DNA of 64,000 nt, from positions 40,163-104,162 of the forward strand of contig DASPGI010000066.1 of NCBI GenBank assembly GCA_035620695.1. The letters are read 5' to 3'. Positions within the stretch are counted from its first letter, which is position 1; every line of letters begins with the position of its first letter. Positions 1-23,668 of this stretch are shown here, in pieces. The notes under the pieces were generated by a model. That model had not been told where the DNA came from. It made no database searches and saw nothing but the letters and a program-made list of their open reading frames with translations. This DNA is from Alphaproteobacteria bacterium (GTDB lineage Bacteria > Pseudomonadota > Alphaproteobacteria > JAREAF01). The position numbers and the translations under genes were made by a program.

Positions 1-542
1 GGGCCGAGCTCGGCCGCCAGATAGCGCACGGTCGCTTCGAGCGCGGCCTTCACCGGTCCCATCACATTGTAATTCTCCACCACCATCTGGCTGCCATAGT
101 AGGTCATGGTGAACAGCGTGCCGCCCTCTGTCATCAACGGCTCGGCCAGCTTGGCCATGCGAATGAAGGACCAGCAGGACACATCCATGGCTTGGAGGAA
201 GCCCTCGCGCGACACGTCGACCACGCGGCCGTGCAGCGCCTCCTTCGGCGCGAAGGCGATCGAGTGCAAAAGAAAATCGAGCTGCCCCCAGTCCTGCCCG
301 ATCCGCTCGAACACCGCTTCCAGCTGCCCTTCGGCACGGACATCGAGTGGAAGCACCAGATCGGCCTCGACCTGTCTTGCCAGCGGCTCGACGAAGGGCT
401 TGGCCTTGTCGTTGAGATAGGTAATCGCCAGCTCCGCCCCGAGGCGATGGAATGCCTTGGCGCATCCCCAGGCAATGGAGTGCTCATTGGCGATGCCTGT
501 GACGAGACCCTTGCGGCCGCGCAAGAGCTTGAACTCGGTCAT
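1..542 (-). CDS. fabI: Enoyl-[acyl-carrier-protein] reductase (NADH), FabI family. Only the N-terminal ~180 aa are in the window; the gene runs off the left edge.
   Basis: The reverse-complement reading from the ATG at 540-542 gives MTEFKLLRGRKGLVTGIANEHSIAWGCAKAF..., the FabI Rossmann motif. The ORF track does not list it because the stop lies outside the window. It sits immediately downstream of ackA, as in the rhizobial pta-ackA-fabI2 arrangement. Confidence 0.85.
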   Translation of the reverse strand, partial: MTEFKLLRGRKGLVTGIANEHSIAWGCAKAFHRLGAELAITYLNDKAKPFVEPLARQVEADLVLPLDVRAEGQLEAVFERIGQDWGQLDFLLHSIAFAPKEALHGRVVDVSREGFLQAMDVSCWSFIRMAKLAEPLMTEGGTLFTMTYYGSQMVVENYNVMGPVKAALEATVRYLAAELG

Positions 543-549
543 GTCGGGT

Positions 550-1782
550 CTATGCGCCATGCATCATCTCCTGCCTTCCACCGCGTTGACGCGCCAACAC
601 CGCCAACGTATGGCGGGCGATCATCAACTCCTCGTCGGTCGGCAGCACGAAAAGCGCGACGCGACTGCCGGGAGCGGAGATCAGCGGGCCGCCCCGCTCG
701 TTTGCCTTCACATCAAGCTCGGCGCCAAGCCAGGCTAGCCGCTGAGCGATCCGAGCACGGATCTCGGGGGAGTTTTCGCCGATGCCGGCGGTGAAGACGA
801 ACGCGTCGAGGCCGCTCATGGCGGCGGCCAAGGAGCCGGCGGCGAGCCCCGCGCGATAGACGAAGTAATCGATGGCAAGAGCCGCTTCTGGCCTGCCGCT
901 CGCGAGGAGCTCTCGCATATCGTTGCTGAGACCGGACAGACCCTTGAGCCCGCACTCGTGATAGAGCAAGCGTTCAACCTCGGCCGCGCTCATGCCCTTC
1001 TCGGCGAGCAGGTACAGAACCACCCCGGGGTCGATTTGCCCCGGCCGCGTGCCCATGGGCAATCCATCCAGCGCGGTGAATCCCATTGTGCTGTCGACGC
1101 TGCGGCCATCGACCATCGCGCACATCGAGACACCGCTGCCCAGATGGGCGACGATGACCCGCCCTGATCGGATCTTCTCATCGAGCGCCGTCAGCCGCTC
1201 GGCGATGTATTCGTAGGAAAGCCCGTGGAATCCATAACGACGAACGCCTTCGGCATACAGACGGGAAGGGATGGCGTAGCGGTCCGCGACCTCCGGATGC
1301 CCGCGATGGAACGCGGTGTCGAAGCATGCGACCTGAAGAAGCTCGGGCGCCTGCGCGAGCAGCGCCCGTATCGGCGCCAAATTGTTCGGCTGATGCAGCG
1401 GCGCCAGGGACACGAAACGCTCGAGCTTGTCGAGAGTCTCGGCATCGATGACCGTCGGTGCATGGAAATCGGGGCCGCCATGCACAACGCGGTGCCCGAC
1501 GGCGACCGGAAAGCCGCGGACCGTTTCACGCAGCCAGGCCCCGACGCGCCGCATCGCCTCCGGAACGTTGGGAACCTCGTCGGCGGAATAGCGGCGTTCG
1601 GCCGTCATACCGGGCTCGACGCCTTCGGCGAGAAGCATGGGCTTGACGCCGATCCCTTCCATGCGGCCCTTGAGCTTCCGCTCCACCTCCTCGCCTCCTG
1701 CGGCGGCAGCGAAGAGCTGGAACTTGATGCTCGACGAACCCGCATTGATGACGAGGACGGTGTCCGTCGGCGACGCCCTCAT
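550..1782 (-). CDS. ackA: Acetate kinase
   Basis: 410 aa. The N-terminus [16 protein letters not shown] is the acetate/propionate kinase signature. It overlaps the pta stop by 4 bp. Confidence 0.95.
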
Positions 1783-2744
1783 CCGGTCACCTTGTCGGGC
1801 CGCGCCCGCAAGGCATGCGCATAAAGCACGGCGACCGCGCAGGAGGCCATCCGGGTACGCACCGAATCGGCACGCGAGGTAAGGATGATCGGAACCCTCG
1901 CGCCCAGCACTATGCCCGCGGCATCGGCCCTGGCGAGGAACGTCAGGTTCTTGGCCAGCATATTGCCGGCCTCGAGATCGGGTACGACCAGGATTTGTGC
2001 GCGACCGGCGACCTCGGAGCGGATGCCCTTGATGCGCGCCGCCTCGGGATCGATGGCATTGTCGAAGGCAAGCGGTCCATCGAGAACACCTCCTTTGATC
2101 TGTCCGCGGTCGGCCATTTTACACAAGGCCGCCGCCTCCAGCGTGGAGGGGATCTTCGGCGTGACCGTCTCCACCGCCGACAGTATCGCGACCCTTGGGA
2201 CACCGAGCCCGAGGCCGCTGAAGAGATCGATCGCGTTCTGGATGATATCCCGCTTGGCCTCGAGATCGGGGAAGATGTTCACCGCCGCGTCGGTGATGAA
2301 CAAGGGATCGGGATAAGTGGGCACATCCATGATGAAGACATGGCTGATCCGGCGGGCGGTCCTAAGCCCGGTCTCGCGCGAGGTCACCTCGTGCAGGAGC
2401 TCGTCGGTATGGAGGCTTCCCTTCATCAAGAGCTCACCCTTGCCTTCCCGAATGAGCGCCACACCCTTGGCCGCGGCCTCGTGGCTGTGCGCGGCGTCAA
2501 CGATCTCGTGGCCGGAAAGGTTCAGCCGGTGCTCCGCCGCGACTGCGCCGATCTTGCCTTTCGGGCCCACTAGGATCGGTCGGATGAGACCATGCTCGGC
2601 GGCTTCGAGGGCCCCGCCCAGCGAGGTCTCGTCGCACGGATGCACGACCACCGTCGGCAGCGCACCGGCCTCGCGCGCTTTCGCGATCAGCCGCTCATAT
2701 TTCGCGCCGCGAGGCTCCGTGTCCGGGGTGCCGGCCGCTACCAT
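1779..2744 (-). CDS. pta: Phosphate acetyltransferase, short ~320-aa Pta/Ptb type
   Basis: 321 aa with a phosphate acetyl/butyryltransferase fold. It has a 4-bp overlap with ackA, the classic pta-ackA operon. Confidence 0.88.
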
Positions 2745-3211
2745 CGGAAAAATATCCCGATATCTCCGGGCATCCCACCGGGATAGTTGAGCACCTCCAC
2801 CCGCATCTTGTAGCCGAGTGGGGCCAGATGCTCGACATGGTAGTCATAGACCTTTCTTGCAATCCCCTGCAGGCTTTCCGGCCAGTCCTCCTCGGCGTTG
2901 TTGATCCGCCGCCCTCCATCAGAGCACCAGGAGGCCGGGAACTGCCCGATCATGATTTCTTGCCGCCCCTGCTCGGCTGCCTTGCGCACGGCGGTATTGA
3001 AGCGCTCTATCGCTTCCCGCCCGATCTCGCGGCTCATGAAGGCGTCGTGAAGCTCGCGCTGCTCCTGTTCGATTCTTTTCTTCTTCTCCAGAGCCTCGCG
3101 CGCCGCGGCCATATCGCGATCCTCCTGGAGCTTGTTGAGCTCCGAAGGTGCCACGATCTTTCCGGCAGACGATTCCTTCGCTGGCGACATGATGTCCGCT
3201 CCTTTCTTCAT
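2738..3211 (-). CDS. Conserved hypothetical protein upstream of pta (orfA-like)
   Basis: 157 aa, charged coiled-coil-like sequence. Its stop overlaps the pta start and its start overlaps the DUF3141 stop (ATGA-type coupling). No motif recognised. Confidence 0.55.
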   Translation of the reverse strand: MKKGADIMSPAKESSAGKIVAPSELNKLQEDRDMAAAREALEKKKRIEQEQRELHDAFMSREIGREAIERFNTAVRKAAEQGRQEIMIGQFPASWCSDGGRRINNAEEDWPESLQGIARKVYDYHVEHLAPLGYKMRVEVLNYPGGMPGDIGIFFRW

Positions 3212-5436
3212 CCGCCCGAGCTTCCGGCGCGGGCCGCCGAGCGTCCGCCTCGGGGCGCCGCCGCGAGATCGATCAAGGTTCCGGGTGTCTGTTCACGCAA
3301 CCCGAACAGACCCTCAACTACTTCCAGACGCCTGCGAATTTCCGCATCAGGTTCGCCTCGCGCCGCCACCACGCGCCGAAGCAGTTCGAAGGCGGTTTTT
3401 CGCGCAGCGGCCTCCTTGGGCAGGAGTTTTGGAATAGCCTGTAGCGCCGCGTCGCGATCGATCAGCAGCATGTAAAACTGCTCGCGCAGTATCTGCTTGA
3501 AGCTCTGCAACGGTAGCGCGTTACTGCCCTCATGTTCTGCGCGAATGCGTCGGATTGCCTCGAAGATGCGCTCATCGGTGCCGCCGAAGGCACTGCCGAC
3601 ATAGACCAGCGCCCGTAACAGCGCCTCGCGTATGCCTCCCTCGCCGATTCGACTATGCAGCTCCGCCTTGCGTGCCTCAACAAAGGCGTCGTGCAGCGGG
3701 CTCCGGCCGGCTTGCTCCCGCGACCAGTCCGCGGAAATGCCAAGCATCGATTGCAGCACCGGAGAGCTATAGACGGTAAGGAAGGTGCGTTCATAGGCCG
3801 CATCACGCGCATCGCGCCACCCATCCAACGCCTTCACCATCTGCTCGGAGAACCGCTCCTGCATTTGCAGGAAGGGGTTGTCGGCGGATACCGGGCTGCG
3901 GTGGTCGCGGACCGTCTCGGCCAACGCGCCGACCGCCCGCATCATCGGATTGGCGTCTGACATCCACTCATATTGCAGCCGCAGCGGGTGCATCTGTGTG
4001 AGGAACGAGGCGAAGGGGGCAAATCCCGCGCGCACCGCCGGCGCAAAAAAATGCCGATACAGCGCGAGGTTGATCTCGGAGAGCCGCTCCACCGCAGCGA
4101 AGCGACGATCGTCCTCCGGGTCGGAGGGAGCCGCGGCCCTCAAGTCATCGAAGGTGCGCGCCTCGAACCGAAGAACCCAGTCGCCCGAGACGAGATCCGT
4201 TTCCTTCATCTCACTCTTCGGCACCAGCACCGCCTCGTAGAGGCCCGGCGGAAGCACATCGATGAAATCGATGTTGCTGGCGAACTCGTCATGCTCCTTC
4301 CGGGCGATCTTGGCGGAGACGAAGATGCCGAGATGTCCGATCGAGGCGTGAACCGAGTAGATGATGGTCTGCCCGTGGACGCGGATGTCGTCGACATCCT
4401 TGTAAAGATCAGTGATCCAGCCGAGGGCCTGCGGGGGCGGAGTAATGTTGTCGCCCTCAGAGCAGAATACCAGGATCGGCGAGCGGATGGCACGCAGATC
4501 GATGCGCGATCCCTCGGAGGTGACGATCTCCGAGCTCGAAAGCTTGTTGCCGATGAACAGCTTGTCGACGATAAACTGGATTTCCTCGGCGTTGAGCATG
4601 ACATGGCCGCCCCACCATTTCTCGAAACCAAGGAATCGCGGCCCTTCCGTGTCGATATTGGCGTAGAGATTGTAGGGCTTCTTCCATAGCGTGTTGGCTG
4701 GATCCAGATTCTCGAAATTGGCCACCAGCCAGGCGCCATCGAACTGCCCGTTTCCGGCATCGCCTAAGAGCGCCGTCAGCCAGCTTCCGCCGACCAAGCC
4801 GCCGGTATAGCGCATGGGGTTCTTGCCATGAACACCAGCCCAGTAGGACAGCGGCGCACCGGCAACCACCACCGGTCCGACCAGATCGGGATGGAGCGCC
4901 GCCAGCATCATCACCGCCCAGCCGCCCTGGCAGTTGCCGATGACGCAGGGCTTGCCCTCGGCGTCGGGGTGAAGCGCGATAACTCGTTCCAGAAACTTCG
5001 CTTCCGCGGCCGTCACGTCCTCGATCGTCTGGCCCGGCATCGGCTCCGGCAGAAAGCCGATGGCATAGCAGGGATGCCCGGCGGCGAGCGCCACGCCGAT
5101 CTCGCTATCCGCCTTGAAGCCGCCGATACCCGGCCCGTGCCCGGCGCGCGGATCGACGACGACGAATGGCCGCTTGCGCGGATCGGCTTCGATGCCTTCG
5201 GGCTGCCGGATGCGGACGAGGCCGTAGTTGACAGGCCGCTCCAGTCGGCGCCCATCCATCACCGGCTCGAATTCGAAGGACAAGACGTGGGGCGCGGTGC
5301 GGGCGGTATGCTCGCGGTACTGGTTCCCGCGTTGACGCAGCATGTCCAGGTAAAGCACGGTCCGCTGCGCCGAATCGACCAGATATTCGAATAGAGGATT
5401 GTTAAAGGCGGCAACCCGTTCCCTGCTTTCTTGCAT
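3208..5436 (-). CDS. DUF3141-family alpha/beta-hydrolase-like protein with a PhaC-like GxCxGG box
   Basis: About 742 aa. The start is taken at MQESRER... (ATG at 5436) because a GGAGGAG RBS lies 7 bp upstream; the listed ORF extends further to 5628. It contains GNCQGGW, a nucleophile-elbow/lipase box that resembles the PHA synthase G-X-C-X-G-G box. Confidence 0.7.
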   Translation of the reverse strand: MQESRERVAAFNNPLFEYLVDSAQRTVLYLDMLRQRGNQYREHTARTAPHVLSFEFEPVMDGRRLERPVNYGLVRIRQPEGIEADPRKRPFVVVDPRAGHGPGIGGFKADSEIGVALAAGHPCYAIGFLPEPMPGQTIEDVTAAEAKFLERVIALHPDAEGKPCVIGNCQGGWAVMMLAALHPDLVGPVVVAGAPLSYWAGVHGKNPMRYTGGLVGGSWLTALLGDAGNGQFDGAWLVANFENLDPANTLWKKPYNLYANIDTEGPRFLGFEKWWGGHVMLNAEEIQFIVDKLFIGNKLSSSEIVTSEGSRIDLRAIRSPILVFCSEGDNITPPPQALGWITDLYKDVDDIRVHGQTIIYSVHASIGHLGIFVSAKIARKEHDEFASNIDFIDVLPPGLYEAVLVPKSEMKETDLVSGDWVLRFEARTFDDLRAAAPSDPEDDRRFAAVERLSEINLALYRHFFAPAVRAGFAPFASFLTQMHPLRLQYEWMSDANPMMRAVGALAETVRDHRSPVSADNPFLQMQERFSEQMVKALDGWRDARDAAYERTFLTVYSSPVLQSMLGISADWSREQAGRSPLHDAFVEARKAELHSRIGEGGIREALLRALVYVGSAFGGTDERIFEAIRRIRAEHEGSNALPLQSFKQILREQFYMLLIDRDAALQAIPKLLPKEAAARKTAFELLRRVVAARGEPDAEIRRRLEVVEGLFGLREQTPGTLIDLAAAPRGGRSAARAGSSGG

Positions 5437-5796
5437 TAAAGCTCCTCCAACGCGACCGAACTTTTCGACATCTTCCCGGATGGCCGATCCGACCCCTTTG
5501 ACCTGCATCAAAGTGGCGGCATTCCGGCGGCAGTCAAGGAAAAGGACGCTTGCAGCTACCGGCCATTCAGCACCGCACGCGCATTCACGACGGAGATGAG
5601 CGAGGGCGACGAACGCGCTGCCACGCAATCATCATTGTGCCGCCCGCCGCTGGCGTCATTGTTTTCATGGAGCGCGTAAAAGCATCTGGTCGAAGGTAGT
5701 AGCCCCAACGCCCAACTCGGGGTTTTTTCGCTATTCCCACGGCTATTTCCGGAGCGGGCCTCAGCAGTTGTCGACGGTGCCGGGCTTGCGAACGGC

Positions 5797-7569
5797 TTAT
5801 GGCTTCCAGTCAACCCGGTGTTCGGCCAGATAGGCGTCGACTCCGGCTCCGAGCGTTGGATGGAAACTATCGTGCCCGAGTTGGCCCATGATCTCGAACC
5901 GCCGCAGCTTGTCTTTCACCGGATCCTTCATCTCGGCGAACCGCAACTCGATCCCGTCATGTCGCAGGCTCGTCTCCAACTCGGAGAGCATATCGGCTGA
6001 CGTCACATCCACGCTGGTGATGGGTTCTGCCGCGAGGACCACTCTGCGCACCGGCGTCGGCGACATTGCGATCGCCGCGCTCAGGCTCTTGCGAAACAAT
6101 TCGGAGTTGGCGAAAAAAAGCGGCGCATCCCAGCGAAAGATGACGAGGCCGGGAACAAGTCGCGCATGCGGATAGCGCCTAAGATCGTGGTATCCGCGCA
6201 AGCCGTCGACGCGGCCCAGAATCGCGGAGTATGGGCGCCAGCCGTCCCAGAGAAACTCGATCACGGCGATTACGATCGCAAGCCCGATACCCTGGATCGC
6301 GCCCAACGTAGCAACGCCCGCGAAGCAGGCCATGGACAGCCAGAATTCCCAACGCTGAATGCGATATATGCGGCGCAAATCGGTGATTTCGAAGAGGCCG
6401 ATGGCGGCCGCGATCACGACCGCCGCCAGCGCGCTGCTGGGCAGATCGCGCAGCAGATCGGGTGCAAGGACCAGAAGGAGCATGACGCCTCCCGCTCCGA
6501 CGACGCCGGTGAGCTGCGTCTTGGCGCCGGCGGACTCCGCCACGGGCGTTCGCGAGGAGGAGCTGCTGATCGGAAAGCCCTGGAAGAATCCAGCGGCGAG
6601 GTTGGCTGCTCCGAGCCCGATCACTTCCTGGTTCGGGTCCACACTTGTTCGCATCCTTGCGGCATAGGAGCGTGACAGCACGCTCGTGTCGGCAAAAGAC
6701 ACCAATGCGACGGCGCAACCACCGATGATGACAGGAACCAGGTCGCCTGCCTCTATCCACGGAACGACAAAGGAGGGCAAGCCCTCCGGCAAGGGACCGA
6801 GAACCTTGACCCCTGCGGCCTCGTCGAGCCCGAAGATACCGACCGCGGCGGTCGCGCCGATCACGGCGAGGAGAATGCCGGGATGACGTGTCCAGCGTTT
6901 CGACATCAAGATCACCAAGAGCGTGGCGGCCCCGATGGCGAAAGCGATCCAGTTGACCCTGCCGTTCAGGACCGCCTTGACGATCTCCAGCAAGTCTTGC
7001 ACCGGCCCGGTGCTCTTGACGGAGACCTGCAAGAGATTGGGGATCTGGCTGATAATCACCGTCAGCGCAATGCCGTTCATGTAGCCGTACCGGATCGGCT
7101 TGGAGAGGAGCTCGGTGATGAACCCAAGCCGCAGCACGCCAAAAAGGACGCATACGAGCCCGGCAACCACCGCCATCATGCCGGCAAGTGCGACGGCGCG
7201 GCCCGGATCTCCTCCCGACAGCGGCAGGACAGTGCCTAAGATAAGGGTCGCCAGCGCCGAATCCGGCCCCAGCACCAGGATCCGGCTTGGCCCGAACAAA
7301 GCATAGGCCAAGAGCGGAACGATGGTGGCATAAAGACCGTAGATGCCCGGCACGCCGGAAGCCACCGCATAGGCGATACCCACCGGGATCAACATGGCCG
7401 ACAAGACAAGGCCGGCCGTCAGATCGCTTGGCAGCCAGGCGAGCTTGTACCGTCGCGCGGATTCGATTCCCGGCAGCCAGCGTCGCCAACCCGATGCGGC
7501 CGCTTCCAAACCGGGGCTCCTCTGGCGACCCGATTCCGGGTCCCGCTCCTCAAGTGATGCCTCGTTCAT
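5797..7569 (-). CDS. SulP-family sulfate/anion permease with C-terminal STAS domain
   Basis: 590 aa. Polytopic N-terminal region (PVGIAYAVASGVPGIYGLYATIVPLL) followed by a STAS-like C-terminus. Confidence 0.9.
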   Translation of the reverse strand: MNEASLEERDPESGRQRSPGLEAAASGWRRWLPGIESARRYKLAWLPSDLTAGLVLSAMLIPVGIAYAVASGVPGIYGLYATIVPLLAYALFGPSRILVLGPDSALATLILGTVLPLSGGDPGRAVALAGMMAVVAGLVCVLFGVLRLGFITELLSKPIRYGYMNGIALTVIISQIPNLLQVSVKSTGPVQDLLEIVKAVLNGRVNWIAFAIGAATLLVILMSKRWTRHPGILLAVIGATAAVGIFGLDEAAGVKVLGPLPEGLPSFVVPWIEAGDLVPVIIGGCAVALVSFADTSVLSRSYAARMRTSVDPNQEVIGLGAANLAAGFFQGFPISSSSSRTPVAESAGAKTQLTGVVGAGGVMLLLVLAPDLLRDLPSSALAAVVIAAAIGLFEITDLRRIYRIQRWEFWLSMACFAGVATLGAIQGIGLAIVIAVIEFLWDGWRPYSAILGRVDGLRGYHDLRRYPHARLVPGLVIFRWDAPLFFANSELFRKSLSAAIAMSPTPVRRVVLAAEPITSVDVTSADMLSELETSLRHDGIELRFAEMKDPVKDKLRRFEIMGQLGHDSFHPTLGAGVDAYLAEHRVDWKP

Positions 7570-7619
7570 CCACGTACTCTGCGAGCCTGCGCACCTGTCC
7601 GGCCCTGGTCTTATGTGGG

Positions 7620-8681
7620 CTAGGATTCGGGCGTCAGGAAGAAAGCCAGGCCGAGAATCAGATAGACCGCAAGCAGCTGCACCCCTTTCAGCCAGTCCGA
7701 CCGCCCATCTCCGGCGACCTGCCCGGTTATCAGTACGGCCAACAATACAGTGAGCACCAGGCCCTCCCCGAAAACGAGATCCATCGTCGCCGGACCAACG
7801 AAGAGACTTGCCAGTACCAGAAGTGGAGCAACGAAAAGGGCGACCTGCACGCTGGATCCGATGGCGATCGACAGGGAGAGGTCCATGCGGTTCTTCATCG
7901 CGGCCGTGATCGCGCTGGCGTGTTCGGCGGCATTGCCGAGAATGGCGACGACGAAAACACCTATGAAGATGTTGCTAAGGCCAAGCTCGTGCGCGCTCGG
8001 CTCGATCGCCCCGACCAAGATCTCGCTTATCCAGGCGATGGCGACAGTCGCACCCGCAAGCACTGCGATTGCCCATCCAACCGGCCACGCCTCCCCATGC
8101 TCGCCATGCTCCGGTGCGGAGAATCCCGAGAACAACGTGGAATGGGTACGTAACGAAAAGAAGAGGAACATGACATAAACCACCAGCAGGACCACCGATA
8201 TGGAGAGGCTAAGGATCCCCTGCCCGCCCGGAACGTACTCGGCGACCAGCTGGCTGTAGGCAGCCGGGATGATCAATGCGATTGCCGCGAGCGTCAGCAT
8301 GGTGGCCTGCGAGCGCGCTCCCGCCGCATTGAAATGCTGCTCTTCGTGCCGAATGCCGCCGGCAAGCATAGCGGCACCGAGCACCAGCAGAATGTTGCCC
8401 ACGATGGATCCGGCGATCGAGGCTTTGACCACGTCGTGCAGCCCGGCGCGCAGAGCGGCGAGCGCGATGATCAGTTCGGCGGCGTTGCCGAAGGTGGCGT
8501 TGAGCAATCCGCCCACGCCTTCACCCGACCGGTTCGCGAGTTGCTCGGTGGCGCGACCCAACCAGCCGGCAAGCGGCAGAATCGCGATCGCGGCCGCCAA
8601 GAACACCAGCAGATAGCGCTCCGGCGTCAGGTACTCCAAAACGATCGCGATCGGGGTGAATATCAACAGCCATTTCATCAT
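7620..8681 (-). CDS. Ca2+/H+ antiporter, CaCA (ChaA/CAX) family
   Basis: Two Na_Ca_ex repeats with GNAAE motifs ([19 protein letters not shown]). Start taken at MMKWLL (ATG at 8681) behind a GGAG RBS; the listed ORF start at 8861 is probably an N-terminal over-extension. Confidence 0.85.
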
Positions 8682-8698
8682 ATCCAAGCAGTCTCCTC

Positions 8699-9427
8699 TC
8701 AGCCGCCCAAGGCAATGGCGACGGCCACCAGCGCGATGCCTAGCAACATCACGCCGACACCGGCGAACCACGGGTTCGCGATCGTATGGCGCGCCCACAG
8801 ATAGCCGACCACGAACAGCAAGATGGTGAGGAGCAAGTTGGAGAGGCGCAACGCCAGCCACGAGTCACTGACCAACAAAAATGGGGCAGCCGCCGGAAGG
8901 GCCGTCATGAACACGAGAAAGAATACGGTAACCGCCCCCATCAGATCGTCGCGCGTCACGCGAGTCCGAGGCGGCTGCGAGCGGGTGACAACTTCAAAAA
9001 CCCCCCGATATAGCCGATCGCGGTCTTCCTCTTGTGTGACCGGCTCGAGATCCGGCTCCATCTCGCGGCGAATTGCCGCCAGCGCCATAACCTCGTTCGG
9101 GGCCGCCTTGATGGCGCGAGCCAAGCGGACACGGCGGCTGCGGACGAACACCTTGCCCATGATATAGAGCACAGCGTCGATGATGCCCCAAGCGATGTTG
9201 CAGCCAATGGCCGCATAAAGCAGCTCTTGTGCGCTACCGGCTCCTTCGCCAGCGCGAATAGCGATACCGGCGCCAAGCGTGAAGGTCAGCACCATGATCA
9301 GCCCGAACAGGAGTTCACCAAGACTTTCCTCCGGACCGAGATAGCGTAGGAGAAGCAATGTCGGGTTCCCAAAATGCGAGGGTTTGATCGCTCTGAGTTC
9401 ATCGTGCCGCTTGCGATTCAAATTCAC
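8699..9427 (-). CDS. VIT1/CCC1-family iron/manganese transporter
   Basis: 242 aa. A cytoplasmic N-terminal helical region then five TM helices, with a VIT-family-like segment LYAAIGCNIAWGIIDAVLYIMG. There is an 18-bp gap to the CaCA gene. Confidence 0.75.
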   Translation of the reverse strand: MNLNRKRHDELRAIKPSHFGNPTLLLLRYLGPEESLGELLFGLIMVLTFTLGAGIAIRAGEGAGSAQELLYAAIGCNIAWGIIDAVLYIMGKVFVRSRRVRLARAIKAAPNEVMALAAIRREMEPDLEPVTQEEDRDRLYRGVFEVVTRSQPPRTRVTRDDLMGAVTVFFLVFMTALPAAAPFLLVSDSWLALRLSNLLLTILLFVVGYLWARHTIANPWFAGVGVMLLGIALVAVAIALGG

Positions 9428-9668
9428 AATCAGCTCCTGATTTTGACAAGGATCAAAGGCCGCATTGCAAAGCCATGCCGTTCACGCGCGCGCACCCCGC
9501 ACGGATGGACTTTAGTGCTAAGGCTTACGGCTCAACCTAGTCCGATAATGGCCTCTTTCGGGCAATCGACAGGGTCACGATTCAAGGACGATAGATAAGG
9601 GATGTCGCGGGCACTGCCTTTTCCCCAACCCTGCCCATGCGCGCTCTTTTTCGCGAACGGCGTCTGCG

Positions 9669-10772
9669 TCACGATGCCGGCGGCTTCTGTTGGTCCGCCA
9701 CCGGCCGCAACACATAGTCTCCGGGGCTCCATTCCCTCATCAAGGTGTAAAGAATGGCCAGAATCGTCGGCCCAAGAAAGATGCCGATGAAGCCGAAGGC
9801 GATAGCCCCGCCCAATATGCCGATGAGGATCAGCAGCAGAGGCAGCGCGCTGCCGCGCGAGATGAACATCGGCCTGATGACATTGTCGATATTCCCTACC
9901 AGGATGGCACTCCATGCGACCAGGAAAACGCCCCAGGCGATCTGGTCTGAGCGGAACAGCCAGATCGCGACCGGCAGCCAGACAATCACCGCCGCGCCCG
10001 GAATGATTCCGAGGAAACCCGTGGCGATGCCGAGCAGGAACGGCGCCGGCACCCCCGAAATCCAGTAGCCGAAAGCCGCGAGCGAGGCTTGCGCCAGCGC
10101 CGAGCCCATGACGCCGTAGACCACGCCCTTGAGCGTACCGTAGGCAACGGCCAGAAGACGCCGCGCCCGGTCTCCCGCCACGCGACTGAGGATGTCGGTC
10201 AGGCGATGCAAAGCGGCTTCGCCATCCCGATAGAAGAAGAAAGCGCAGACGATGCTGAGGGCAAGCTCCGCAATGCCGCCTCCCACCGCCGCGCCGATCT
10301 TCAACAACCGCTGGACCGCACCTCGCAGCAGTTGCTGCAGCTCCTCGGACTCGCTTCCTTCAGCGGCAAGCTCGCGCCAGCGTTGAACGAGCCTGTCTCC
10401 GACGAGCGGGATCCGCGCGAGGAAGTCAGGGGGCTCGACACCGCCCTCCTGAAGCGCCAGGCGCAGCCGTTCGCCCAAGGTCGCGACATTGTCCGCCATG
10501 GTCACGCCGACCAAAGCGACCGGGCCCAGCAGCACCAACACCAGCAGTAGCGTCATCAGCGTCGCCGCGAGCGTGCCACGCCCACCGAGATGTCTGCGGA
10601 ACCAGGAGAAAACCGGCCATGTGGCGATGGCAAGGATCGCGCCCCAAAGCAGAGCCGCCAGAAACGGCCGCACGATCACGAACGAGACCGCGCATAGAAG
10701 AAGGATGAAGATCAGCGCGAACGCGGTCGCGATGTAGGCGGTGCGTTGTTCGGGCCTCTGCGCCATATCCAC
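9669..10772 (-). CDS. AI-2E family transporter (PerM/UPF0118)
   Basis: 367 aa, 8 TM. The C-terminal conserved block NIDNVIRPMFISRGSALPLLLILIGILGG is typical of AI-2E/PerM permeases. Confidence 0.85.
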   Translation of the reverse strand: MDMAQRPEQRTAYIATAFALIFILLLCAVSFVIVRPFLAALLWGAILAIATWPVFSWFRRHLGGRGTLAATLMTLLLVLVLLGPVALVGVTMADNVATLGERLRLALQEGGVEPPDFLARIPLVGDRLVQRWRELAAEGSESEELQQLLRGAVQRLLKIGAAVGGGIAELALSIVCAFFFYRDGEAALHRLTDILSRVAGDRARRLLAVAYGTLKGVVYGVMGSALAQASLAAFGYWISGVPAPFLLGIATGFLGIIPGAAVIVWLPVAIWLFRSDQIAWGVFLVAWSAILVGNIDNVIRPMFISRGSALPLLLILIGILGGAIAFGFIGIFLGPTILAILYTLMREWSPGDYVLRPVADQQKPPAS

Positions 10773-10856
10773 CGCCCATCGGAATCGCTCCGTTGGCGAA
10801 CAATCTTCGGCCCTGCCAGGGCATACCCCGCATCGCCGCCGGCCGGGCGCGGATGC

Positions 10857-11648
10857 CTACAAGCGATAATTCACCGTGAATCCCAAGAACAGTTGATTCT
10901 CATCGCCCCGATTATCGACGACCGGGCTATCGGCCGCGTCGTCGATCAACCGGGTGAAGCCGCCGAGGAGCGTGGCCGACCAATGTTCGGCGAACCGATA
11001 GTTGACATTGGCGCTGACGCCGACATCCTTGAAACCGGCATCCGCATCGAAGGTGTTGAGCCCGCTTCGGGCGGCATCGCTGGCGTTCACGCCGAAATAC
11101 TCCGACATATAGTCTTCACTCGCCCAGTTGCTGAACAGCTCGGCGCCAATGGAGAAAGGGCTGTCGGGCATTCTATTGAAGTAGGACAGGCGCGGCGTGA
11201 CGAGATAGCCGTTGTCGCTGGCGACATCGTAGCGCAGATCGAGAAGCGCCGCGAAATCGGCGTTGGCCTGCGGGAAGAAGTCCCAACCAAAGATGCCGCC
11301 CAAGAAAAGTCCGGCATCGACACTCCTCATGCGGTCGACGGCGTCGTCTTCGACATTGTTGCGCTCGGGTATGTACAACCCCGATACACCAGCTCGCAGA
11401 TGCGGATCGGCGACGAAATTGGACCGCAACGCCGGTCCGGCCAGTGTTACATAGGTGTCGGGGTGGTAGAGATCCTTGGCGGAAAAGAGCCAAGTCGGCA
11501 CGCCCTGATAGTCGTCCGAACCCTCATAGTCCGGCGCGGCGCCGACACCCAGCCCCACGGTGAAGTCAGTCGCGTTCGCCGGAGCAATTGCCGCGGAAAT
11601 GACAAATGTTGCGACAGTGCAAAGGAATCCCAGGCTCAGTTTTTTCAT
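10857..11648 (-). CDS. MipA/OmpV-family outer-membrane protein
   Basis: 263 aa. Signal peptide MKKLSLGFLCTVATFVISAAIAPANA, beta-rich sequence ending FLGFTVNYRL, in keeping with an MltA-interacting-protein family beta-barrel. Confidence 0.75.
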   Translation of the reverse strand: MKKLSLGFLCTVATFVISAAIAPANATDFTVGLGVGAAPDYEGSDDYQGVPTWLFSAKDLYHPDTYVTLAGPALRSNFVADPHLRAGVSGLYIPERNNVEDDAVDRMRSVDAGLFLGGIFGWDFFPQANADFAALLDLRYDVASDNGYLVTPRLSYFNRMPDSPFSIGAELFSNWASEDYMSEYFGVNASDAARSGLNTFDADAGFKDVGVSANVNYRFAEHWSATLLGGFTRLIDDAADSPVVDNRGDENQLFLGFTVNYRL

Positions 11649-11899
11649 CTGTTTGGATCTCCATTCGCTTGTCCTAATACAACGTGGGTTCGATTCTGGC
11701 CGTGGCGAAATTCATTGAGCTGCCACCGGTGCGCATTGATGTAAATCAAGACCGCATTCGCCGCCACCTTATCTTTGTGCCGAAGTGGCCTGCTCACGCC
11801 GCTCCCAACAAATATGGCGTCGTCGCCGCGATTGGTAGCAGCGCCATCGGCGGTGCGACTCGAAGGTCATGCGCGGCCGACAATCCGCGGATTTCTCCG

Positions 11900-12970
11900 T
11901 CACCGCAGGGGATCCGGAAGATTTTCGCGGATAAGTATGGAAAACAGCGGGCTCTTGCCAGCCCGATCGGCGGCCTCGTTGATCTGCGCGCGGTTTTGCA
12001 ACTCCTCGAACGGCAGGCGCGTGTCGGGCGAGCCGCGCGCATAGAGATATTCGGGTGTATGCCCGGTCAGCAGCAGCCTCCAGTCCCAGGGCAGGACGGC
12101 GCCCGCCGCAAGACCCGCAACGCGGATCTGGCTGGTGCAATTGGTCCAGAGGGTGTTGTAGAAGCGCGGCCTCTGCGCAAGCGCGTTGATCGTTCGCAAA
12201 TATTCGAGAAAGAGGCGGCGTGCATTTTCAGGGGGGGTGCGCAGCCGGAAAAGATGGACGCGCTCCTTGCGGAAGGTCGTTCGCAGCCGCAAGAGATCGC
12301 GCTCGTCACCGAGAATATAGATCAGCTCGTAGTTCCGGAAGGCGCCTTGAAGGGTCGAATATTCCTGGTCCCGGCGTCGCCGGATTTCGATCGACGCGAT
12401 GATTTGCTCGCCCGTATCGAAACCGAAGCTGACCATCAGATGCGCGATATGCGGACCGCCCCAATAGGAGGCGATCAGGTCCAGGCGGCTCAGCGCGGAG
12501 AGGGAATAGCTGCGCTCCTCCCAGCGTTCGAGGAACCGATCCGTTCCATTCCAGTCGAAATTGCGGATGTTGCGGATGGTGACGCGATCGCCCTCGATCG
12601 AGGCTTCGGCCATTCTCGCGACCTCCGGCGGCCAGTTGCCGGCATGGGAAGGCTCGATCAGCGCCCAGGCCACAGTGGCCAGCGCGGCGGCGACCCCTAG
12701 AGCGAGGATCGCCGGCCGCAACCGTCGAAGGAAGACGCCGGCAAGCGCCAGCAGCGCCAACATGGCTACTGCCAGGGCGGCGGGAAGCCGCGCCTGACCG
12801 GACAGCACCGGTGCATAGAGAAGCACAAGCTCTGTCCAACCGCCGACGGCAAGAATGGCCAGGACAAAGAGGCTCTTGGATAGGATGTGCACGGCCAGTC
12901 CGCCGGCTCTCTTGGGCTGCAAGGGAACGCTACCGGCGCGTGCCATGCGATTACCCAGGGTCCCTTTCAA
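11900..12970 (-). CDS. DUF4105-domain (Lnb-like) membrane/periplasmic protein
   Basis: 356 aa. N-terminal TM helices then a soluble domain (YWGGPHIAHLMVSFGF...). An internal start at 12946 is possible. It begins 8 bp after the upstream SYLF gene. Confidence 0.6.
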   Translation of the reverse strand: MKGTLGNRMARAGSVPLQPKRAGGLAVHILSKSLFVLAILAVGGWTELVLLYAPVLSGQARLPAALAVAMLALLALAGVFLRRLRPAILALGVAAALATVAWALIEPSHAGNWPPEVARMAEASIEGDRVTIRNIRNFDWNGTDRFLERWEERSYSLSALSRLDLIASYWGGPHIAHLMVSFGFDTGEQIIASIEIRRRRDQEYSTLQGAFRNYELIYILGDERDLLRLRTTFRKERVHLFRLRTPPENARRLFLEYLRTINALAQRPRFYNTLWTNCTSQIRVAGLAAGAVLPWDWRLLLTGHTPEYLYARGSPDTRLPFEELQNRAQINEAADRAGKSPLFSILIRENLPDPLR

Positions 12971-17250: not shown

Positions 17251-18840
17251 TCAAGGCTGTCCGGTCTTTGCTCCCAAGGGTGCCTCCATATTGGGAAGAG
17301 AGGTGCTTTCGGAATGCTTGTCTCCGGTTTGGTCGCCTGCTTCCGGGTTCACTCTCACGATCCCGATCCCAATGAGGCTGAACAGAAAGGAAATCAGCGG
17401 ATTCAAAAGGTTGAAGAAGCAGTAGATCAGATAGTTGGAAGCCGGGATACCCAGAGCCGCCGCCATATAGGCGCCGCAGCTGTTCCAGGGGATCAGCGGC
17501 GAGGTCACGGTGGCGGAATCGCCGACTACGCGCGACAGCAGGACCGGCGCCAAGCCCCGGCGCTTGAACTCCATCCGGAACATCCGTCCGGGCAGCATGA
17601 TGGCGATATACTGGTCGGAGGTCAGCAGGTTGGCGCCGATCGCGGTTCCAATCACCACGCCGACCAAGCCTGCGACCGATTTCGCCTTGTCGATGATCGG
17701 ATCGACCAGCCGATTCAACAGCCCCGCCTGCTCGACCACCGCTCCGAAGGCCAGGGCCGTCATGATCAGCCATACAGTCACCATCATGCTTGCCATGCCG
17801 CCGCGGCTCAACAACTGGTCCAAGGCCGGATCGCCCGTGCTTGATTGATAGCCGGTGGCCAGTGCGGACCAGGCGCCCTTCAAAAGCGCCAGTGACTGCG
17901 GAATGTCCGGAGCGTCGGCGAATTCAAGCACCTTGTCCGGTGATTGGACCACCGCCAAGACGCCGCCCAGCAGCGCGCCAGCGAAGATCGCCAGGAAGGG
18001 TGGCGTGCGCAGCATCGCCAGTACGAATACCGCCAGGAGCGGCAAAAAGGCCCAGAGCGTGATGTGGTGACGATCGCCGATCCGCGTCAGCTCGGCGGAG
18101 GCGTCGAAATCTCCCGGCGACCCGATCAGCGCAAAAAACACCAGCGCAAGCACCAGGGCCGGCACCGAGATGCGCAACGATTCCTTGATATGGCTGAAAA
18201 TCTCCGATCCCGCCGCGGCCACCGCAAGATTGGCGGTGTCTGATAGCGGCGAGGTCTTGTCGCCGAAATAGGCGCCCGAGATCACCGCCCCGGCGGTGAT
18301 CGCCAGCGAGAGCTCCATCGTCGCGGCGATGCCCATGAGGCCGATGCCGATCGTCCCCGCGACCGTCCAGGAACTGCCGATCGCGGTGGCGACCACGGCG
18401 CAGATCAGCGCGGCGCTGGCATAGAAATATTGCGGCGAAAGCAGCTGCAGCCCGTAATAGACCATGGCGAGGATGGTGCCGCTCATCGCCCAGGTTCCAA
18501 TCAGCGCACCGACGCCCAGAAGAATGAAGATGGCGGCCAAACCGCTCGACACGCCTTCAACCGCGCCGGCGCGAATGCTTGCCCAGGGCCTTCCATTCTT
18601 GAAAGAGATCAATGTTGCCAGCACGGCGGCAAACACGAGCGCGATCTGGTTGGGTCCTTGAGAGGCGTCCGCGCCGTAGAGATAAAAAGACAAGGCCAGA
18701 AGGACGATCAGTCCGCCGACCGGAATCAAGGCGTCGAGGAGAGATGGTCTGCGCGCGGGCTGAGCCGGTTCTTCCGTGGACCCGGGCAAGGTCGGATCAG
18801 TTGCCGCCATCACCGTCTCGGTCGCCCTTGCGGCATCCAA
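17251..18840 (-). CDS. NhaC-family Na+/H+ (or arginine/ornithine-type) antiporter
   Basis: 529 aa, about 12 TM, NhaC-family topology. It begins 30 bp after arcC on the same strand, so it is likely co-transcribed with the arc operon. Confidence 0.85.
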   Translation of the reverse strand: MDAARATETVMAATDPTLPGSTEEPAQPARRPSLLDALIPVGGLIVLLALSFYLYGADASQGPNQIALVFAAVLATLISFKNGRPWASIRAGAVEGVSSGLAAIFILLGVGALIGTWAMSGTILAMVYYGLQLLSPQYFYASAALICAVVATAIGSSWTVAGTIGIGLMGIAATMELSLAITAGAVISGAYFGDKTSPLSDTANLAVAAAGSEIFSHIKESLRISVPALVLALVFFALIGSPGDFDASAELTRIGDRHHITLWAFLPLLAVFVLAMLRTPPFLAIFAGALLGGVLAVVQSPDKVLEFADAPDIPQSLALLKGAWSALATGYQSSTGDPALDQLLSRGGMASMMVTVWLIMTALAFGAVVEQAGLLNRLVDPIIDKAKSVAGLVGVVIGTAIGANLLTSDQYIAIMLPGRMFRMEFKRRGLAPVLLSRVVGDSATVTSPLIPWNSCGAYMAAALGIPASNYLIYCFFNLLNPLISFLFSLIGIGIVRVNPEAGDQTGDKHSESTSLPNMEAPLGAKTGQP

Positions 18841-18870
18841 CCGGGTGTTCGCCCGATCCCGTCGGCTCGA

Positions 18871-19809
18871 TCAGCGGTGCCATGAAAGGCCCTTGCGGTC
18901 GGAGCTGACCAGCGTTCCTTTTTCGCCCGCCACTATGGCCGGAATGTCGGCCAGCGCACCAATCGCGGCGGTCTTGCCGGTGGCTTCTGCGAAGCGGCAG
19001 GCGGCGTCGACCTTGGGTCCCATCGAGCCGGCCGGGAACTGATAGTCCCGCATCGACGCCGGGCTCGCCCGATGAATGGCCTTGGCATCGGGCTTGCCCC
19101 AATTCACGAAGACGGCGGCGGCATCGGTCGCCATTATGAAAAGGTCGGCGGCCAGTTCGCGAGCGAGAAGCTCGCTCGCCAAGTCCTTGTCGATGACGGC
19201 CTCGACGCCGATCAACTTGCGGTTCGCGCTACGCTGATACATGGTCGGAATGCCGCCGCCGCCGGCCGCGATGACGATGGTGCCCCTCTCCAACAACCAC
19301 CGGATGGGCCGGATCTCGAAGATGCGCTTGGGCTCAGGAGAAGGCACGACCCGTCGCCACTTGTCACCGTCCGCCTTGAAGATCCAACCCTTTTCCTTGG
19401 CGATGCGGTCGGCGGTCGACTTATCGTAAACCGGGCCAACGAACTTGGTCGGATTGGCGAAGCCCGGATCGTCGGGATCGATCTCGATCATGGTCAGGAG
19501 CGTGGCGAAGGGCACCTCAAACGGCAGCAGGTTGCCGAGCTCCTGCTCGATCATGTAGCCGATCATCCCTTCGGTTTCCGCGCCCAGGACGTCGAGCGGG
19601 TAGGCCTCGTCCGGCTTGTAGGCCGCGCCCTGAAGGGCAAGGAGCCCGACCTGGGGGCCGTTGCCGTGACTGATGACGAGCTGATGGTCGCGCGCGACAG
19701 GCGCCAGCGCCTCGGCCGCGATCTTCACATTCCGGCGTTGAGCGTCGGCGGTCATCGGCTCGCCACGTTTCAGAAGCGCGTTGCCTCCCAGAGCGACGAC
19801 GATGCGCAT
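18871..19809 (-). CDS. arcC: Carbamate kinase
   Basis: 312 aa. [17 protein letters not shown]... amino-acid kinase fold. Last gene of the arcDABC set. Confidence 0.95.
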
Positions 19810-19814
19810 GGCCC

Positions 19815-20819
19815 TTAATCTCCCAAGGTGGCGACCAGCAGCGCCTTGATCGTGTGCATCCGATTCTCGGCCTGCTCGAAGGCGATGTTCCGCTCTGACT
19901 CAAACACCTCGTTGGTGACCTCAAGCCCGTTCGTCATGCCGTAAGTTTCGGCGATCTGACGACCCACGACCGTCTCTGTATCGTGGAAAGCGGGCAAGCA
20001 GTGCATAAACCTCACTTGCGGGTTTCCGCTTGCCTCGATCAGGGCGTCATTCACCTGATAGGGCTTCAAGAGGTCGATGCGCTCCTTCCAAACCTCCTTC
20101 GGCTCGCCCATGGAAACCCAGACGTCCGTGTGAATGAAGTCCACCCCCTTCACCGCGGCCTTGGGGTCTTCGGTGATGGTGAGCTTGGCGCCGTGCTTAC
20201 GCTCCAAATCCTGGGCGATCTTCCTGTATTCCTGGGTTGGCCAGAGTTTCTTTGGGCCAGCGATGCGCACATCCATTCCCATCAGGCATCCGGCGATCAT
20301 CAGCGAATGGCCCATATTCGAGCGGGTATCGCCGACATAGGCGTATTTGATCTCGTGGATCGGCCGGTCGCTGTGCTCGCGCATGGTCATGATGTCCGCA
20401 AGCATCTGGGTCGGGTGATACTCGTCGGTTAGCCCGTTATAGACCGGCACGCCGGCATATTCCGCGAGCTGCTGCACGCCCTCCTGAGAAGCGCCGCGAT
20501 ACTCGATCGCGTCATACATGCGCCCCAGCACGCGCGCGGTGTCCTTGAAGGATTCTTTGTGTCCGATTTGCGAGCCCGCCGGATCGAGATAGGTGACATG
20601 CGCGCCCTGGTCATGACACGCGACCTCGAAGGCACAACGGGTGCGGGTCGAGGTCTTCTCGAAGATCAGGCAGATCTCCTTTCCTTCGAGATGCCGCTGC
20701 TCGGTCCTCGAGTACTTCGCCCGCTTGAGATCGCGCGCGAGATCCAGGAGGTAGCGGAACTCCCGTTGGGTGTAGTCCTGCACGGTCAAGAGCGAACGGT
20801 TGCGCAGATTGAAGCTCAC
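19815..20819 (-). CDS. arcB: Ornithine carbamoyltransferase, catabolic
   Basis: 334 aa. STRTR carbamoyl-phosphate motif and HCLP ornithine motif. Called arcB from operon context. Confidence 0.93.
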
Positions 20820-20847
20820 GGGTTCCCTCCGTCGACATTGATGGCAT

Positions 20848-22077
20848 TCAATAGGCTGGGTCGCGGGAGACAGGGCAGGTCATGCAATGGCCACCGCCAC
20901 GCCCGCGGCCAAGCTCGGCTCCGCGTACGGTGATCACTTCGATGCCCGCCTTTCTCAGAAGAGTGTTGGTGTGAATGTTCCGGTCGTAGGCGACGACGAC
21001 GCCGGGCTCTAACGCGACGACGTTGTTTCCGTCGTCCCACTGCTCGCGTTGTGCGTCGTAGGCGTCTCCTCCGGTCTCGACGACGTGGAGCTTTTTTAAC
21101 CCCAGCGCCTCCGGAACCACCTCCAAAAGCGGCTTCGTCTCCTTGCGTATCTCGATGCCGACCGGCTCCTTGCCGGGATAGGCGCTGTAGCAGGCGATCT
21201 GATCGACCACCTCGCGGAAGACGGTGACGATATCGCGATCACAGAAACTGAAGACCGTATCGAGATGCATCGCCGCCCGGCTCTTGGGCATCAGGCATGC
21301 GATCACGCGCGAGGCCGCCTTGTTCCGGAACAGCTCGCGACAGACCTGCATCACCGCGTGCCGGCTGGTCCTCTCGCCCATCCCGATCAGCACCAGCCCC
21401 TTCCCGACCGGCATGACGTCGCCGCCTTCCATCGTGGCATTGGCGAAGTCTTCGTCCGAATCACCCCACCAGATCTTGAAATCGCCCTGTTTAAACAGCG
21501 GGTGAAACTTGTAGACGGCGCGCTGGAGCAGGGTTTCCGGCTTGCGCGCCGGCCAGAACATCGGATTGCACGTAACCCCGCCATAGATCCAGCAAGAGGG
21601 ATCGCGCTGAAACAGGGTATTGGGAATCGGCGGGATCACGAAATCGGCGCCACCGAACGCCTCGCTCATCATCTTCTTCATGCCGTTTTCAGGGAGGTCG
21701 TCGACGGCGATGCCGCCGATCAGATGTTCGGCCAGTTGCTTGGCCGGCATCTCGTCGAGCCAAGGACGCATCGCCACCGCAGCGCCGACGCCAACATGAT
21801 TCGACGTGATACGGCGGTCGAGGATGAAGGCTCGTCCCTCGGGCTCTTCCAGAACCGCGGTCAGCAGATCGTGCAGGTCCAGGACCTCGGTGCCTCGTTC
21901 CTGCATCTTCAGCGCGAAGTCGTAGTGGTCCTTCTGCGCCTCGTGCACCCACAGCACATCGTCAAATAGCAGGGTATGGCAGTTTCCGGGCGTGAGGCGC
22001 TGATGCGCCAAACCGGGCCGGCACACCATCACCGCATTCAGCTTGCCGACCTCAGAGTGAACCCCGAGCTTGAACAT
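20848..22077 (-). CDS. arcA: Arginine deiminase
   Basis: Start taken at [13 protein letters not shown] (ATG at 22077) behind a GGAGAGGAAG RBS. The listed ORF start at 22149 would overlap arcD and is probably an over-extension. It contains ADI family blocks, including the catalytic Cys region GGGHCMTCP. Confidence 0.93.
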
Positions 22078-22121
22078 CTTCCTCTCCCGTAATCCGTGAT
22101 CCGAAGAAGCTTCCACTCCGT

Positions 22122-23603: not shown

Positions 23604-23668
23604 TAGTGGTCCCTAAATAAGTGATCCCTAAGTCGGATCAGATGTAAGGCGCACCAAACGGAACGTTG

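Follow-up and report, generated by a model that had tools for sequence, protein, structure and literature searches.

A tightly packed set of five genes was analysed in a stretch of 64,000 nucleotides from an alphaproteobacterium (NCBI GenBank assembly GCA_035620695.1, contig DASPGI010000066.1, positions 40,163 to 104,162 of the forward strand), which is called the window below. The genes code for a protein of the DUF3141 family, a small orphan protein (orf150), a phosphotransacylase (Pta), an acetate/propionate-family kinase (Ack) and an enoyl reductase (FabI). Judged from its sequence, the set appears to be under FNR/FixK-type (low-oxygen) rather than phosphate-starvation control. This is well supported, as is its reading as an oxygen-limitation unit for substrate-level phosphorylation within a local regulon that includes an arginine-deiminase operon. 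Given the low-oxygen box in its promoter, the operon probably lets the cell gain energy, which may come from stored PHB (poly-3-hydroxybutyrate), when oxygen runs out. Tentatively, and with some doubt, we favour a low-oxygen operon for substrate-level phosphorylation that is activated by FNR, FixK or Anr and in which the DUF3141 protein mobilises poly-3-hydroxybutyrate (PHB) to acyl-coenzyme A (acyl-CoA). The features of the locus are, in window coordinates:

3208..5436, minus strand: DUF3141 protein, 742 amino acids (aa), PF11339 with E 2.7e-277
2738..3190, minus strand: orf150, 150 aa, small orphan protein between DUF3141 and pta
1779..2744, minus strand: phosphotransacylase (pta) of the PRK11890 type, 321 aa, PF01515 and NF008852
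550..1782, minus strand: acetate/propionate-family kinase (ackA), 410 aa, PF00871 with E 2.5e-105 and TIGR00016
1..560, minus strand: enoyl reductase FabI of the PRK07533 type, N-terminal 180-186 aa, NF005717, gene cut at base 1
5498..5511, minus strand: FNR/FixK-type box TTGATGCAGGTCAA, probable site for class II activation of the operon
4918..4938, minus strand: nucleophile elbow GNCQGGW, with the codon of Cys169 at 4930..4932
4438..4461, minus strand: SEGDNITP motif with the candidate catalytic Asp329 (4450..4452)
4321..4341, minus strand: IGHLGIF motif with the candidate catalytic His368 (4333..4335)
3287..3311, no strand assigned: inverted repeat GTCTGTTC-N9-GAACAGAC, chance feature in coding sequence

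The box TTGATGCAGGTCAA (TTGAT-N4-GTCAA) is a perfect FNR/FixK/Anr-type site, whose centre lies about 69 bp before the DUF3141 start codon. With a transcription start placed at about 5463, its position fits class II promoter geometry; a scan for the sigma-70 consensus gave no sites. In a close relative, L094, with a DUF3141 protein 91% identical to that of the window, a 22-nt block including the box is invariant, though the leader is only 78% identical. Four distinct sites of the form TTGAT-N4-RTCAA were found in the window where 0.13 were expected, all of them intergenic and each upstream of minus-strand genes. Across 75 related loci, the region from −350 to +250 around the DUF3141 start held a perfect TTGA-N6-TCAA in 34, at a background of 0.077 per 600 bp. 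When all neighbourhood genes were counted, boxes preceded orf150 in 12 of 18 cases (67%), PflB in five of eight (62%), a GNAT gene in five of nine, DUF3141 in 35 of 75 (47%) and CoA-transferase A in nine of 21, against 9% for unrelated genes and 3% for the operon-internal Ack gene.

Pho control, which the earlier note on this DNA had proposed on the example of Sinorhizobium meliloti, found no echo in the sequence. The Pho box sought was the E. coli/rhizobial consensus of direct CTGTCAT-like repeats spaced 11 bp. No such repeat rose above shuffled sequence in the 360-bp region upstream of DUF3141 (5437..5796), which is indeed intergenic, or around 3287..3311, nor did one in the leader of the S. 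meliloti pSymA operon. The best half-site pair scored 9/14 in both leaders, the commonest best score in shuffles. With up to three mismatches allowed, the 64 kb contained two matches, both far from the operon, where 2.8 were expected. The 8-bp inverted repeat at 3287..3311, suggested in the same note as a regulatory site inside the 3′ end of DUF3141, is present but is rejected in that role: it is one among seven 8-bp inverted repeats in 3.4 kb, it falls within the GLFGLREQT codons of DUF3141, and both of its arms are changed non-compensatorily in L094.

A stretch of some 55 nt farther upstream than the FNR box (about 5640..5700), reading …CCTTCGACC…GCTCCATGAAAACAATG.CGCCA.CGGCG, is kept in L094 amid the diverged leader. 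The peptide of a possible short open reading frame (ORF) in this block is not conserved between the two loci. An Rfam scan of 1..12500 gave no match.

All five genes lie on the minus strand in the order DUF3141, small ORF, pta, ackA and fabI, and form a unit as tight as the earlier note had described, although the 4-bp overlaps that it mentioned are limited to pta and ackA (1779..1782, ATGA type). The overlap of orf150 and pta measures 7 bp (2738..2744), and ackA and fabI either overlap by 11 bp, if fabI starts at ATG 560 with its good AGGAG site, or leave a gap of 7 bp, if it starts at ATG 542. In L094 the fabI orthologue is full length (263 aa) and has a 4-bp overlap with ack. The length of 742 aa given for DUF3141 was borne out. 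An ORF of 806 aa from TTG 5628 was discarded as an artefact, homologues fitting ATG 5436, which is preceded by GGAGGAG. The small ORF was revised from 157 to most likely 150 aa, starting at ATG 3190 with an AAAGGAG ribosome-binding site. A database copy with 100% identity, from a metagenome-assembled alphaproteobacterium at NCBI, has 150 aa, and the ATG of the longer reading is missing in L094. With the start at 3190, the DUF3141 stop and orf150 are separated by 17 bp. A terminator-like hairpin at 2756..2770 was at chance level and is accounted for by GIFFRW codons.

The linkage of these genes was compared in 80 loci from species genomes (Xanthobacteraceae, Bradyrhizobium, Rhodoplanes, Sinorhizobium/Ensifer, Paracoccus, Competibacteraceae, Dechloromonas and Sulfuritalea), 65 of which had enough downstream sequence for counts of gene order; family members were also found in Contendobacter. 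Within 10 kb of DUF3141, pta was present in 62 of the 80 loci, ack in 53, fabI in 66, a homologue of orf150 in 27 and a SulP homologue in 25. The order is widely conserved, with pta directly after DUF3141 in 44 of 65 loci and the full order DUF3141-pta-ack-fabI in 24. The position of orf150 between DUF3141 and pta is confined to the window, L094 and one of 80 other loci.

Recurrent neighbours of a fermentation type are Crp/Fnr regulators, FocA, PflB with its activase PflA, and CoA-transferase A/B. MaoC dehydratases, AI-2E transporters, PPK2 (16 of the 80 loci) and HlyD/RND pumps recur as well. In a Rhodoplanes metagenome-assembled genome (L025 1694..13200), the genes Crp/Fnr-PflB-PflA-AAE-FocA-FabI-DUF3141-Pta stand on a single strand, which places DUF3141 inside a mixed-acid fermentation cluster. 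MaoC genes adjoin fabI in Bradyrhizobium, and the same four-gene order is found in the betaproteobacterium Ralstonia solanacearum. The cluster of Caballeronia reads DUF3141-fabI-(enoyl-CoA hydratase/Pta fusion)-ack-H+ P-type ATPase-PPK2 (L092 7884..17413), and its PPK2 and plasma-membrane H+ P-type ATPase suggest a gene set for ‘energy without respiration’. The gammaproteobacterium Halomonas carries a string DUF3141-hypothetical gene-ack-pta-PhaC, of which the PHA (polyhydroxyalkanoate) synthase PhaC has both PhaC_N and PHBC_N. A PhaC also lies beside the module in a Pseudolabrys metagenome-assembled genome (L027 5251..6948) and is 60% identical to the PhaC of a Halomonas plasmid (L089 11307..13073), which points to a distinct PhaC lineage that moves together with DUF3141-pta-ack.

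The cluster on S. meliloti pSymA has the same pta-ackA-fabI order with DUF3141 immediately upstream, as in the window, and identities of 78% for Pta, 62% for Ack, 73% for FabI and 61% for DUF3141. It differs in its box, TTGACGCAGATCAC at −88, which is one mismatch away from the FNR-type consensus against the perfect box of the window, and in lacking the 150-aa gene. Judged by this gene order, the small ORF is not the S. meliloti orfA that the earlier note had likened it to: on pSymA, DUF3141 directly precedes pta and no orf150 homologue lies between them. About 1.2 kb upstream of the intact DUF3141-pta-ack-fabI, and divergent from it, an annotated DUF3141 fragment of 98 aa and a hypothetical gene of 128 aa were observed (L001 10597..11302); the fragment is probably the remnant of a duplication.

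The DUF3141 protein of the window matches PF11339 with 921.5 bits (cut-off 29.7), residues 21-596 aligning to positions 1-581 of the 582 in the model. More than 8000 clusters at 90% identity match the query, and of the representatives at 50% identity 4330 match at E <= 0.001 and 895 at E <= 1e-30. In an AlphaFold (AF2) model (pLDDT 74, pTM 0.73), an alpha/beta-hydrolase core is followed by a helical C-terminal domain of about 300 aa, in agreement with the fold and with the G-X-C-X-G-G elbow (GNCQGGW) that had been recognised earlier. Cys169, on whose conservation the earlier reading of this elbow had been staked, is kept. Together with Asp329 and His368 it is invariant in alignments down to 36% identity (Rhizobium phaseoli, Methylocystis, Halomonas, Ralstonia). 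Among the best 150 representatives, those covering each column had Cys in 102 of 109, Asp in 129 of 138 and His in 124 of 134 cases (93-94%), and frameshifted fragments seem to account for many of the remainder.

The resemblance of this protein to PhaC, also proposed earlier, is remote and weak but in register. The top Foldseek match of the model was a PhaC-CoA structure (6k3c, E 1.3e-5), and a search of PDB sequences with the DUF3141 profile gave no significant relative. Class III PhaC (TIGR01836) was matched at E 1.2e-7 with 31.1 bits, against a cut-off of 365.3, and TIGR01838 with 16.7 bits, against 622.65. In an hhalign comparison with a genuine PhaC (E 0.0016), GNCQGGW falls on GYCLGGT and GDNITPP on KDHVAPW. 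DUF3141 thus has in common with class I/III PhaC the alpha/beta-hydrolase fold, the elbow (GNCQGG at residues 167-172) and a candidate Asp and His in the same order, and differs from it in having a Pfam family of its own, the C-terminal helical domain of about 300 aa and, in the Pfam scan, no match to PhaC_N (PF07167). We infer a PhaC-type cysteine acyl-enzyme that stands outside the PhaC family, because the PhaC_N domain is missing and the curated cut-offs are not reached. It would not be a replacement for PhaC, since a genuine PhaC co-occurs with it in the Halomonas string and in L027. As the earlier note held, its biochemical role is undescribed, no reaction being assigned to it in the searchable literature. 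A shorter DUF3141 clade of about 570-640 aa, without the last helical segment (Acidovorax, Roseobacter, Halomonas, Methylocystis), sits in copper/heavy-metal islands by Cu P-type ATPases, DUF2933 and ICMT-like genes.

The partner proteins were assigned with the same type of profile. Pta matches PF01515 (E 6.8e-46), NF008852 with 530.4 bits (cut-off 413) and, with 513 bits, the C-terminal half of NF006045, a family of bifunctional enoyl-CoA hydratase/Pta proteins; it is homologous to the Pta half of the MaoC-hydratase/Pta fusions in DUF3141 clusters. It scored 318.6 bits against the phosphate butyryltransferase (Ptb) model TIGR02706 (cut-off 410.5) and 67.6 bits against the classical Pta model TIGR00651 (cut-off 311.2). 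Both scores lie below their cut-offs, so that Pta is assigned to neither equivalog, and the profile scores set it far nearer to the phosphate butyryltransferases than to the classical enzyme. The kinase matches PF00871 with 352.8 bits and TIGR00016 with 344.8 bits (cut-off 293.4). FabI reached 327.3 bits with NF005717, against a cut-off of 337, with only 180 of about 262 residues in the window. The orf150 protein combines a long charged N-terminal helix with a compact alpha/beta C-terminal domain, and searches gave it no Pfam family and no structural match; all 512 homologues detected are about 143-150 aa long. One homologue lies at L085 8854..9324. The family is also met without DUF3141, for example in Ensifer canadensis, where the arrangement is ppk2-orf150-AI-2E, and in Azospirillum, where the gene stands alone.

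An operon for the complete arginine-deiminase pathway on the minus strand (17251..23682) lies 18 kb away and has a perfectly palindromic box, TTGATCTGGATCAA, at 23669..23682. In Pseudomonas this type of operon is an Anr-dependent anaerobic source of ATP. Two further FNR-type boxes stand in a 12-kb co-directional array of MipA, AI-2E transporter, VIT1-like, Ca2+/cation exchanger and SulP genes, followed by the DUF3141 operon. The SulP transporter probably belongs to the same regulon as the operon rather than to the same transcript. These neighbouring features are:

5797..7569, minus strand: SulP/STAS anion transporter, PF00916 and PF01740, TIGR00815, directly upstream of the DUF3141 leader
9669..10772: AI-2E transporter
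9443..9456 and 11736..11749, upstream of minus-strand genes: the two further FNR-type boxes
22122..23603, minus strand: arcD-like permease
20848..22149, minus strand: arcA
19815..20819, minus strand: arcB
18871..19809, minus strand: arcC
17251..18840, minus strand: NhaC-type antiporter in the arginine-deiminase operon

The DUF3141 operon resembles the Anr/FNR-dependent ATP operons (arcDABC; ackA-pta of pyruvate fermentation in Pseudomonas) in combining an FNR-type box at promoter distance with substrate-level phosphorylation. It differs from them by the addition of DUF3141, orf150 and FabI, and by its Ptb-like Pta.

In the explanation that we prefer, the five genes would form one operon, and an FNR/FixK/Anr-type activator, bound at 5498..5511, would turn it on when oxygen is limiting. 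The DUF3141 protein would be a PhaC-related Cys-Asp-His acyltransferase that acts on stored PHB and cleaves it with CoA, most likely by thiolysis as in PhaZ1 of Ralstonia eutropha, to (R)-3-hydroxybutyryl-CoA. This product could be converted to acetyl-CoA by oxidation and thiolysis, and possibly also to butyryl-CoA by dehydration and reduction with FabI, which would re-oxidise NADH. The Ptb-like phosphotransacylase would turn the acyl-CoAs into acyl-phosphates and the kinase would use these to make ATP, with orf150 as an accessory protein of the same regulon. We infer the identity of the activator, PHB as the substrate, mobilisation as the direction and the acyl-chain specificity. PHB is proposed because of the PhaC-like cysteine chemistry, the company of PhaC, PhaP and PhaR in mobile PHB islands without a depolymerase, the effect of PhaR in Bradyrhizobium, the Ptb-like Pta, and the hydratase-Pta fusions with the enoyl reductase.

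The literature describes several of these associations. The class I phaC islands that occur sporadically in Pseudomonas are never without phaR, phaP and DUF3141; those of classes I.1-I.3 add phbB and paaJ, class I.3 also eutD, ackA and fabI, and no phaZ depolymerase gene is listed for them (bioRxiv 10.1101/2025.03.12.642780). Clusters of phaC-pta(phaJ fusion)-ack-fabI in Burkholderia were tied to the S. meliloti operon in a 2021 review (PMC8231600). Such islands (phaC-phaR-phaP-DUF3141-eutD-ackA-fabI-phbB-paaJ) share the module of DUF3141, Pta, Ack and FabI with the window, and differ from it by genes for PHB synthesis, phasins and regulators and, in many cases, a MaoC-Pta fusion, none of which was found within the 64 kb. 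In a phaR mutant of Bradyrhizobium diazoefficiens under microoxia, blr3455, blr3456, blr3457 (pta), blr3458 (ackA2) and blr3459 (fabI) were up 4-9 fold, as were bll3460 (nodN) and bll3462 (pcaI), together with known microoxic genes (PMC10888616 supplement). Judged from other Bradyrhizobium loci, the hypothetical gene blr3456 would be the DUF3141 gene. Thiolytic cleavage of PHB is established for R. eutropha PhaZ1 (PMC3430594). The analogy proposed here is that DUF3141, like PhaZ1/PhaZa1, would be a cysteine-type alpha/beta hydrolase releasing 3-hydroxybutyryl-CoA from PHB; it differs in that the Pfam and NCBIfam scans (E <= 0.01) gave no match to models of PHB_depo_C or PhaZ. The catalytic residue of PhaZ1 is a Cys. 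Two granule-associated hydrolases of R. eutropha, A0671 and B1632, which have a ‘synthase/depolymerase signature’ and lie next to pta and ackA genes, may be DUF3141 proteins. Searches of the literature for a link between anaerobic PHB fermentation and Pta-Ack brought up nothing specific.

Several points weigh against this explanation. The direction of the reaction cannot be read from the sequence, phaC lies within 10 kb in only three of the 80 loci, and the 64-kb window contains no PHB gene. The hhalign probability for the pair of DUF3141 and PhaC is 16%, a weak similarity, generic hydrolases score nearly as high as PhaC in Foldseek, and the loops with Asp329 and His368 are poorly modelled. 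FabI may simply be an isozyme of fatty acid synthesis. The shorter DUF3141 clade occurs in its metal islands without pta or ack, a location that a PHB role leaves unexplained. On the side of regulation, the window genes that were scanned included none for an FNR-type regulator, and PhoB control has been reported for the ORF-pta-ack-fabI operon of S. meliloti (Summers 1999, cited in PMC8231600).

The main rival to PHB mobilisation is the reverse direction, anaerobic synthesis of PHB from acetate. DUF3141 would then be an alternative PHA synthase or the partner of one, Ack and Pta would be assimilatory (acetate to acetyl-CoA), and PHB would serve as an electron sink under oxygen limitation, as in glycogen-/phosphate-accumulating organisms. 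The PhaC-like G-X-C-X-G-G box and Cys-Asp-His triad are compatible with this, as are the occurrence of the family in Competibacteraceae, Contendobacter and Dechloromonas and the frequent proximity of PPK2; acetate storage has been proposed for phaC-pta-ack-fabI clusters in a Burkholderia review (PMC8231600), and a ‘phaC2’-pta-ackA operon of Herbaspirillum is co-expressed with PHB synthesis genes (PMC8222739). We nevertheless consider a synthetic role unlikely: DUF3141 has no PhaC_N domain and scores far under the PhaC cut-offs, Halomonas and L027 each have a genuine PhaC within the string, and neither FabI nor the MaoC-Pta fusions have a role in synthesis of PHB from acetate. The phaC1 deletion of R. 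eutropha, which we take to be PHB-negative despite DUF3141-like genes, tells in the same direction.

Improbable to a like degree is a function apart from PHB, in which DUF3141 would belong to a broad regulon for low oxygen or stress and use its cysteine, as a thioesterase, esterase or acyltransferase, on acyl-CoA or lipid substrates of another kind, for instance in membrane remodelling with FabI, and the linkage with Pta-Ack would reflect co-regulation only. That PHB genes are not nearby in most loci, that some DUF3141 genes stand alone or in metal-resistance islands, that generic hydrolases come almost level with PhaC in the fold search and that many neighbours are transporters (SulP, AI-2E, RND) speaks for such a function. 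Less readily accommodated are the adjacency of DUF3141 and pta, which spans Alpha-, Beta- and Gammaproteobacteria and holds for 44 of 65 loci, the regulatory effect of PhaR on the Bradyrhizobium orthologues, a Cys nucleophile typical of PHB synthases and the thiolytic depolymerase, and the constant presence of DUF3141 in the PhaC/PhaR/PhaP islands of Pseudomonas (bioRxiv 10.1101/2025.03.12.642780). Very unlikely, finally, is the view of the earlier note, a PhoB-controlled, phosphate-stress-inducible acetyl-phosphate operon with DUF3141 as an accessory acetyl-transfer enzyme at the acetyl-CoA/acetyl-phosphate node: the PhoB dependence reported for S. meliloti, the recurrence of PPK2 genes near DUF3141 as a link to phosphate metabolism and the response of Herbaspirillum pta and ackA to phosphate and polyphosphate status (PMC8222739) speak for it, but neither the window nor the pSymA leader has a Pho box beyond shuffles and the promoter position is held by the perfect, conserved FNR-type box.

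The preferred reading, mobilisation of PHB under oxygen limitation, can be extended to a fuller pathway, in which DUF3141 would supply the missing enzyme for CoA-dependent mobilisation of PHB in a widespread pathway induced by oxygen limitation, and PHB would double as a reserve of energy for anaerobic conditions and as an acceptor of electrons inside the cell. We regard this extension as doubtful. PHB would be converted to (R)-3-hydroxybutyryl-CoA, this to crotonyl-CoA by MaoC and then to butyryl-CoA by FabI, consuming NADH; the Ptb-like Pta would form the acyl-phosphate, and Ack would release butyrate or acetate and ATP. If true, such a pathway would conserve the ester-bond energy of PHB as ATP in rhizobia, Bradyrhizobium, Ralstonia, Burkholderia and the glycogen-accumulating organisms of wastewater.

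The locus belongs to an already noticed, widespread operon type, to which FNR-type control offers a concrete entry point. The shift from phosphate to FNR/FixK-type control alters which experiments make sense, even without a role for PHB. The main fermentation enzymes that yield ATP have DUF3141 as a neighbour in bacteria of nodules, in organisms of wastewater, in plant pathogens and in opportunists. If DUF3141 couples PHB to substrate-level phosphorylation at low oxygen, this would explain how PHB accumulators that respire obligately survive anoxia, would account for the retention of PHB by bacteroids, and would provide a handle on PHB turnover in strains for bioplastic production.

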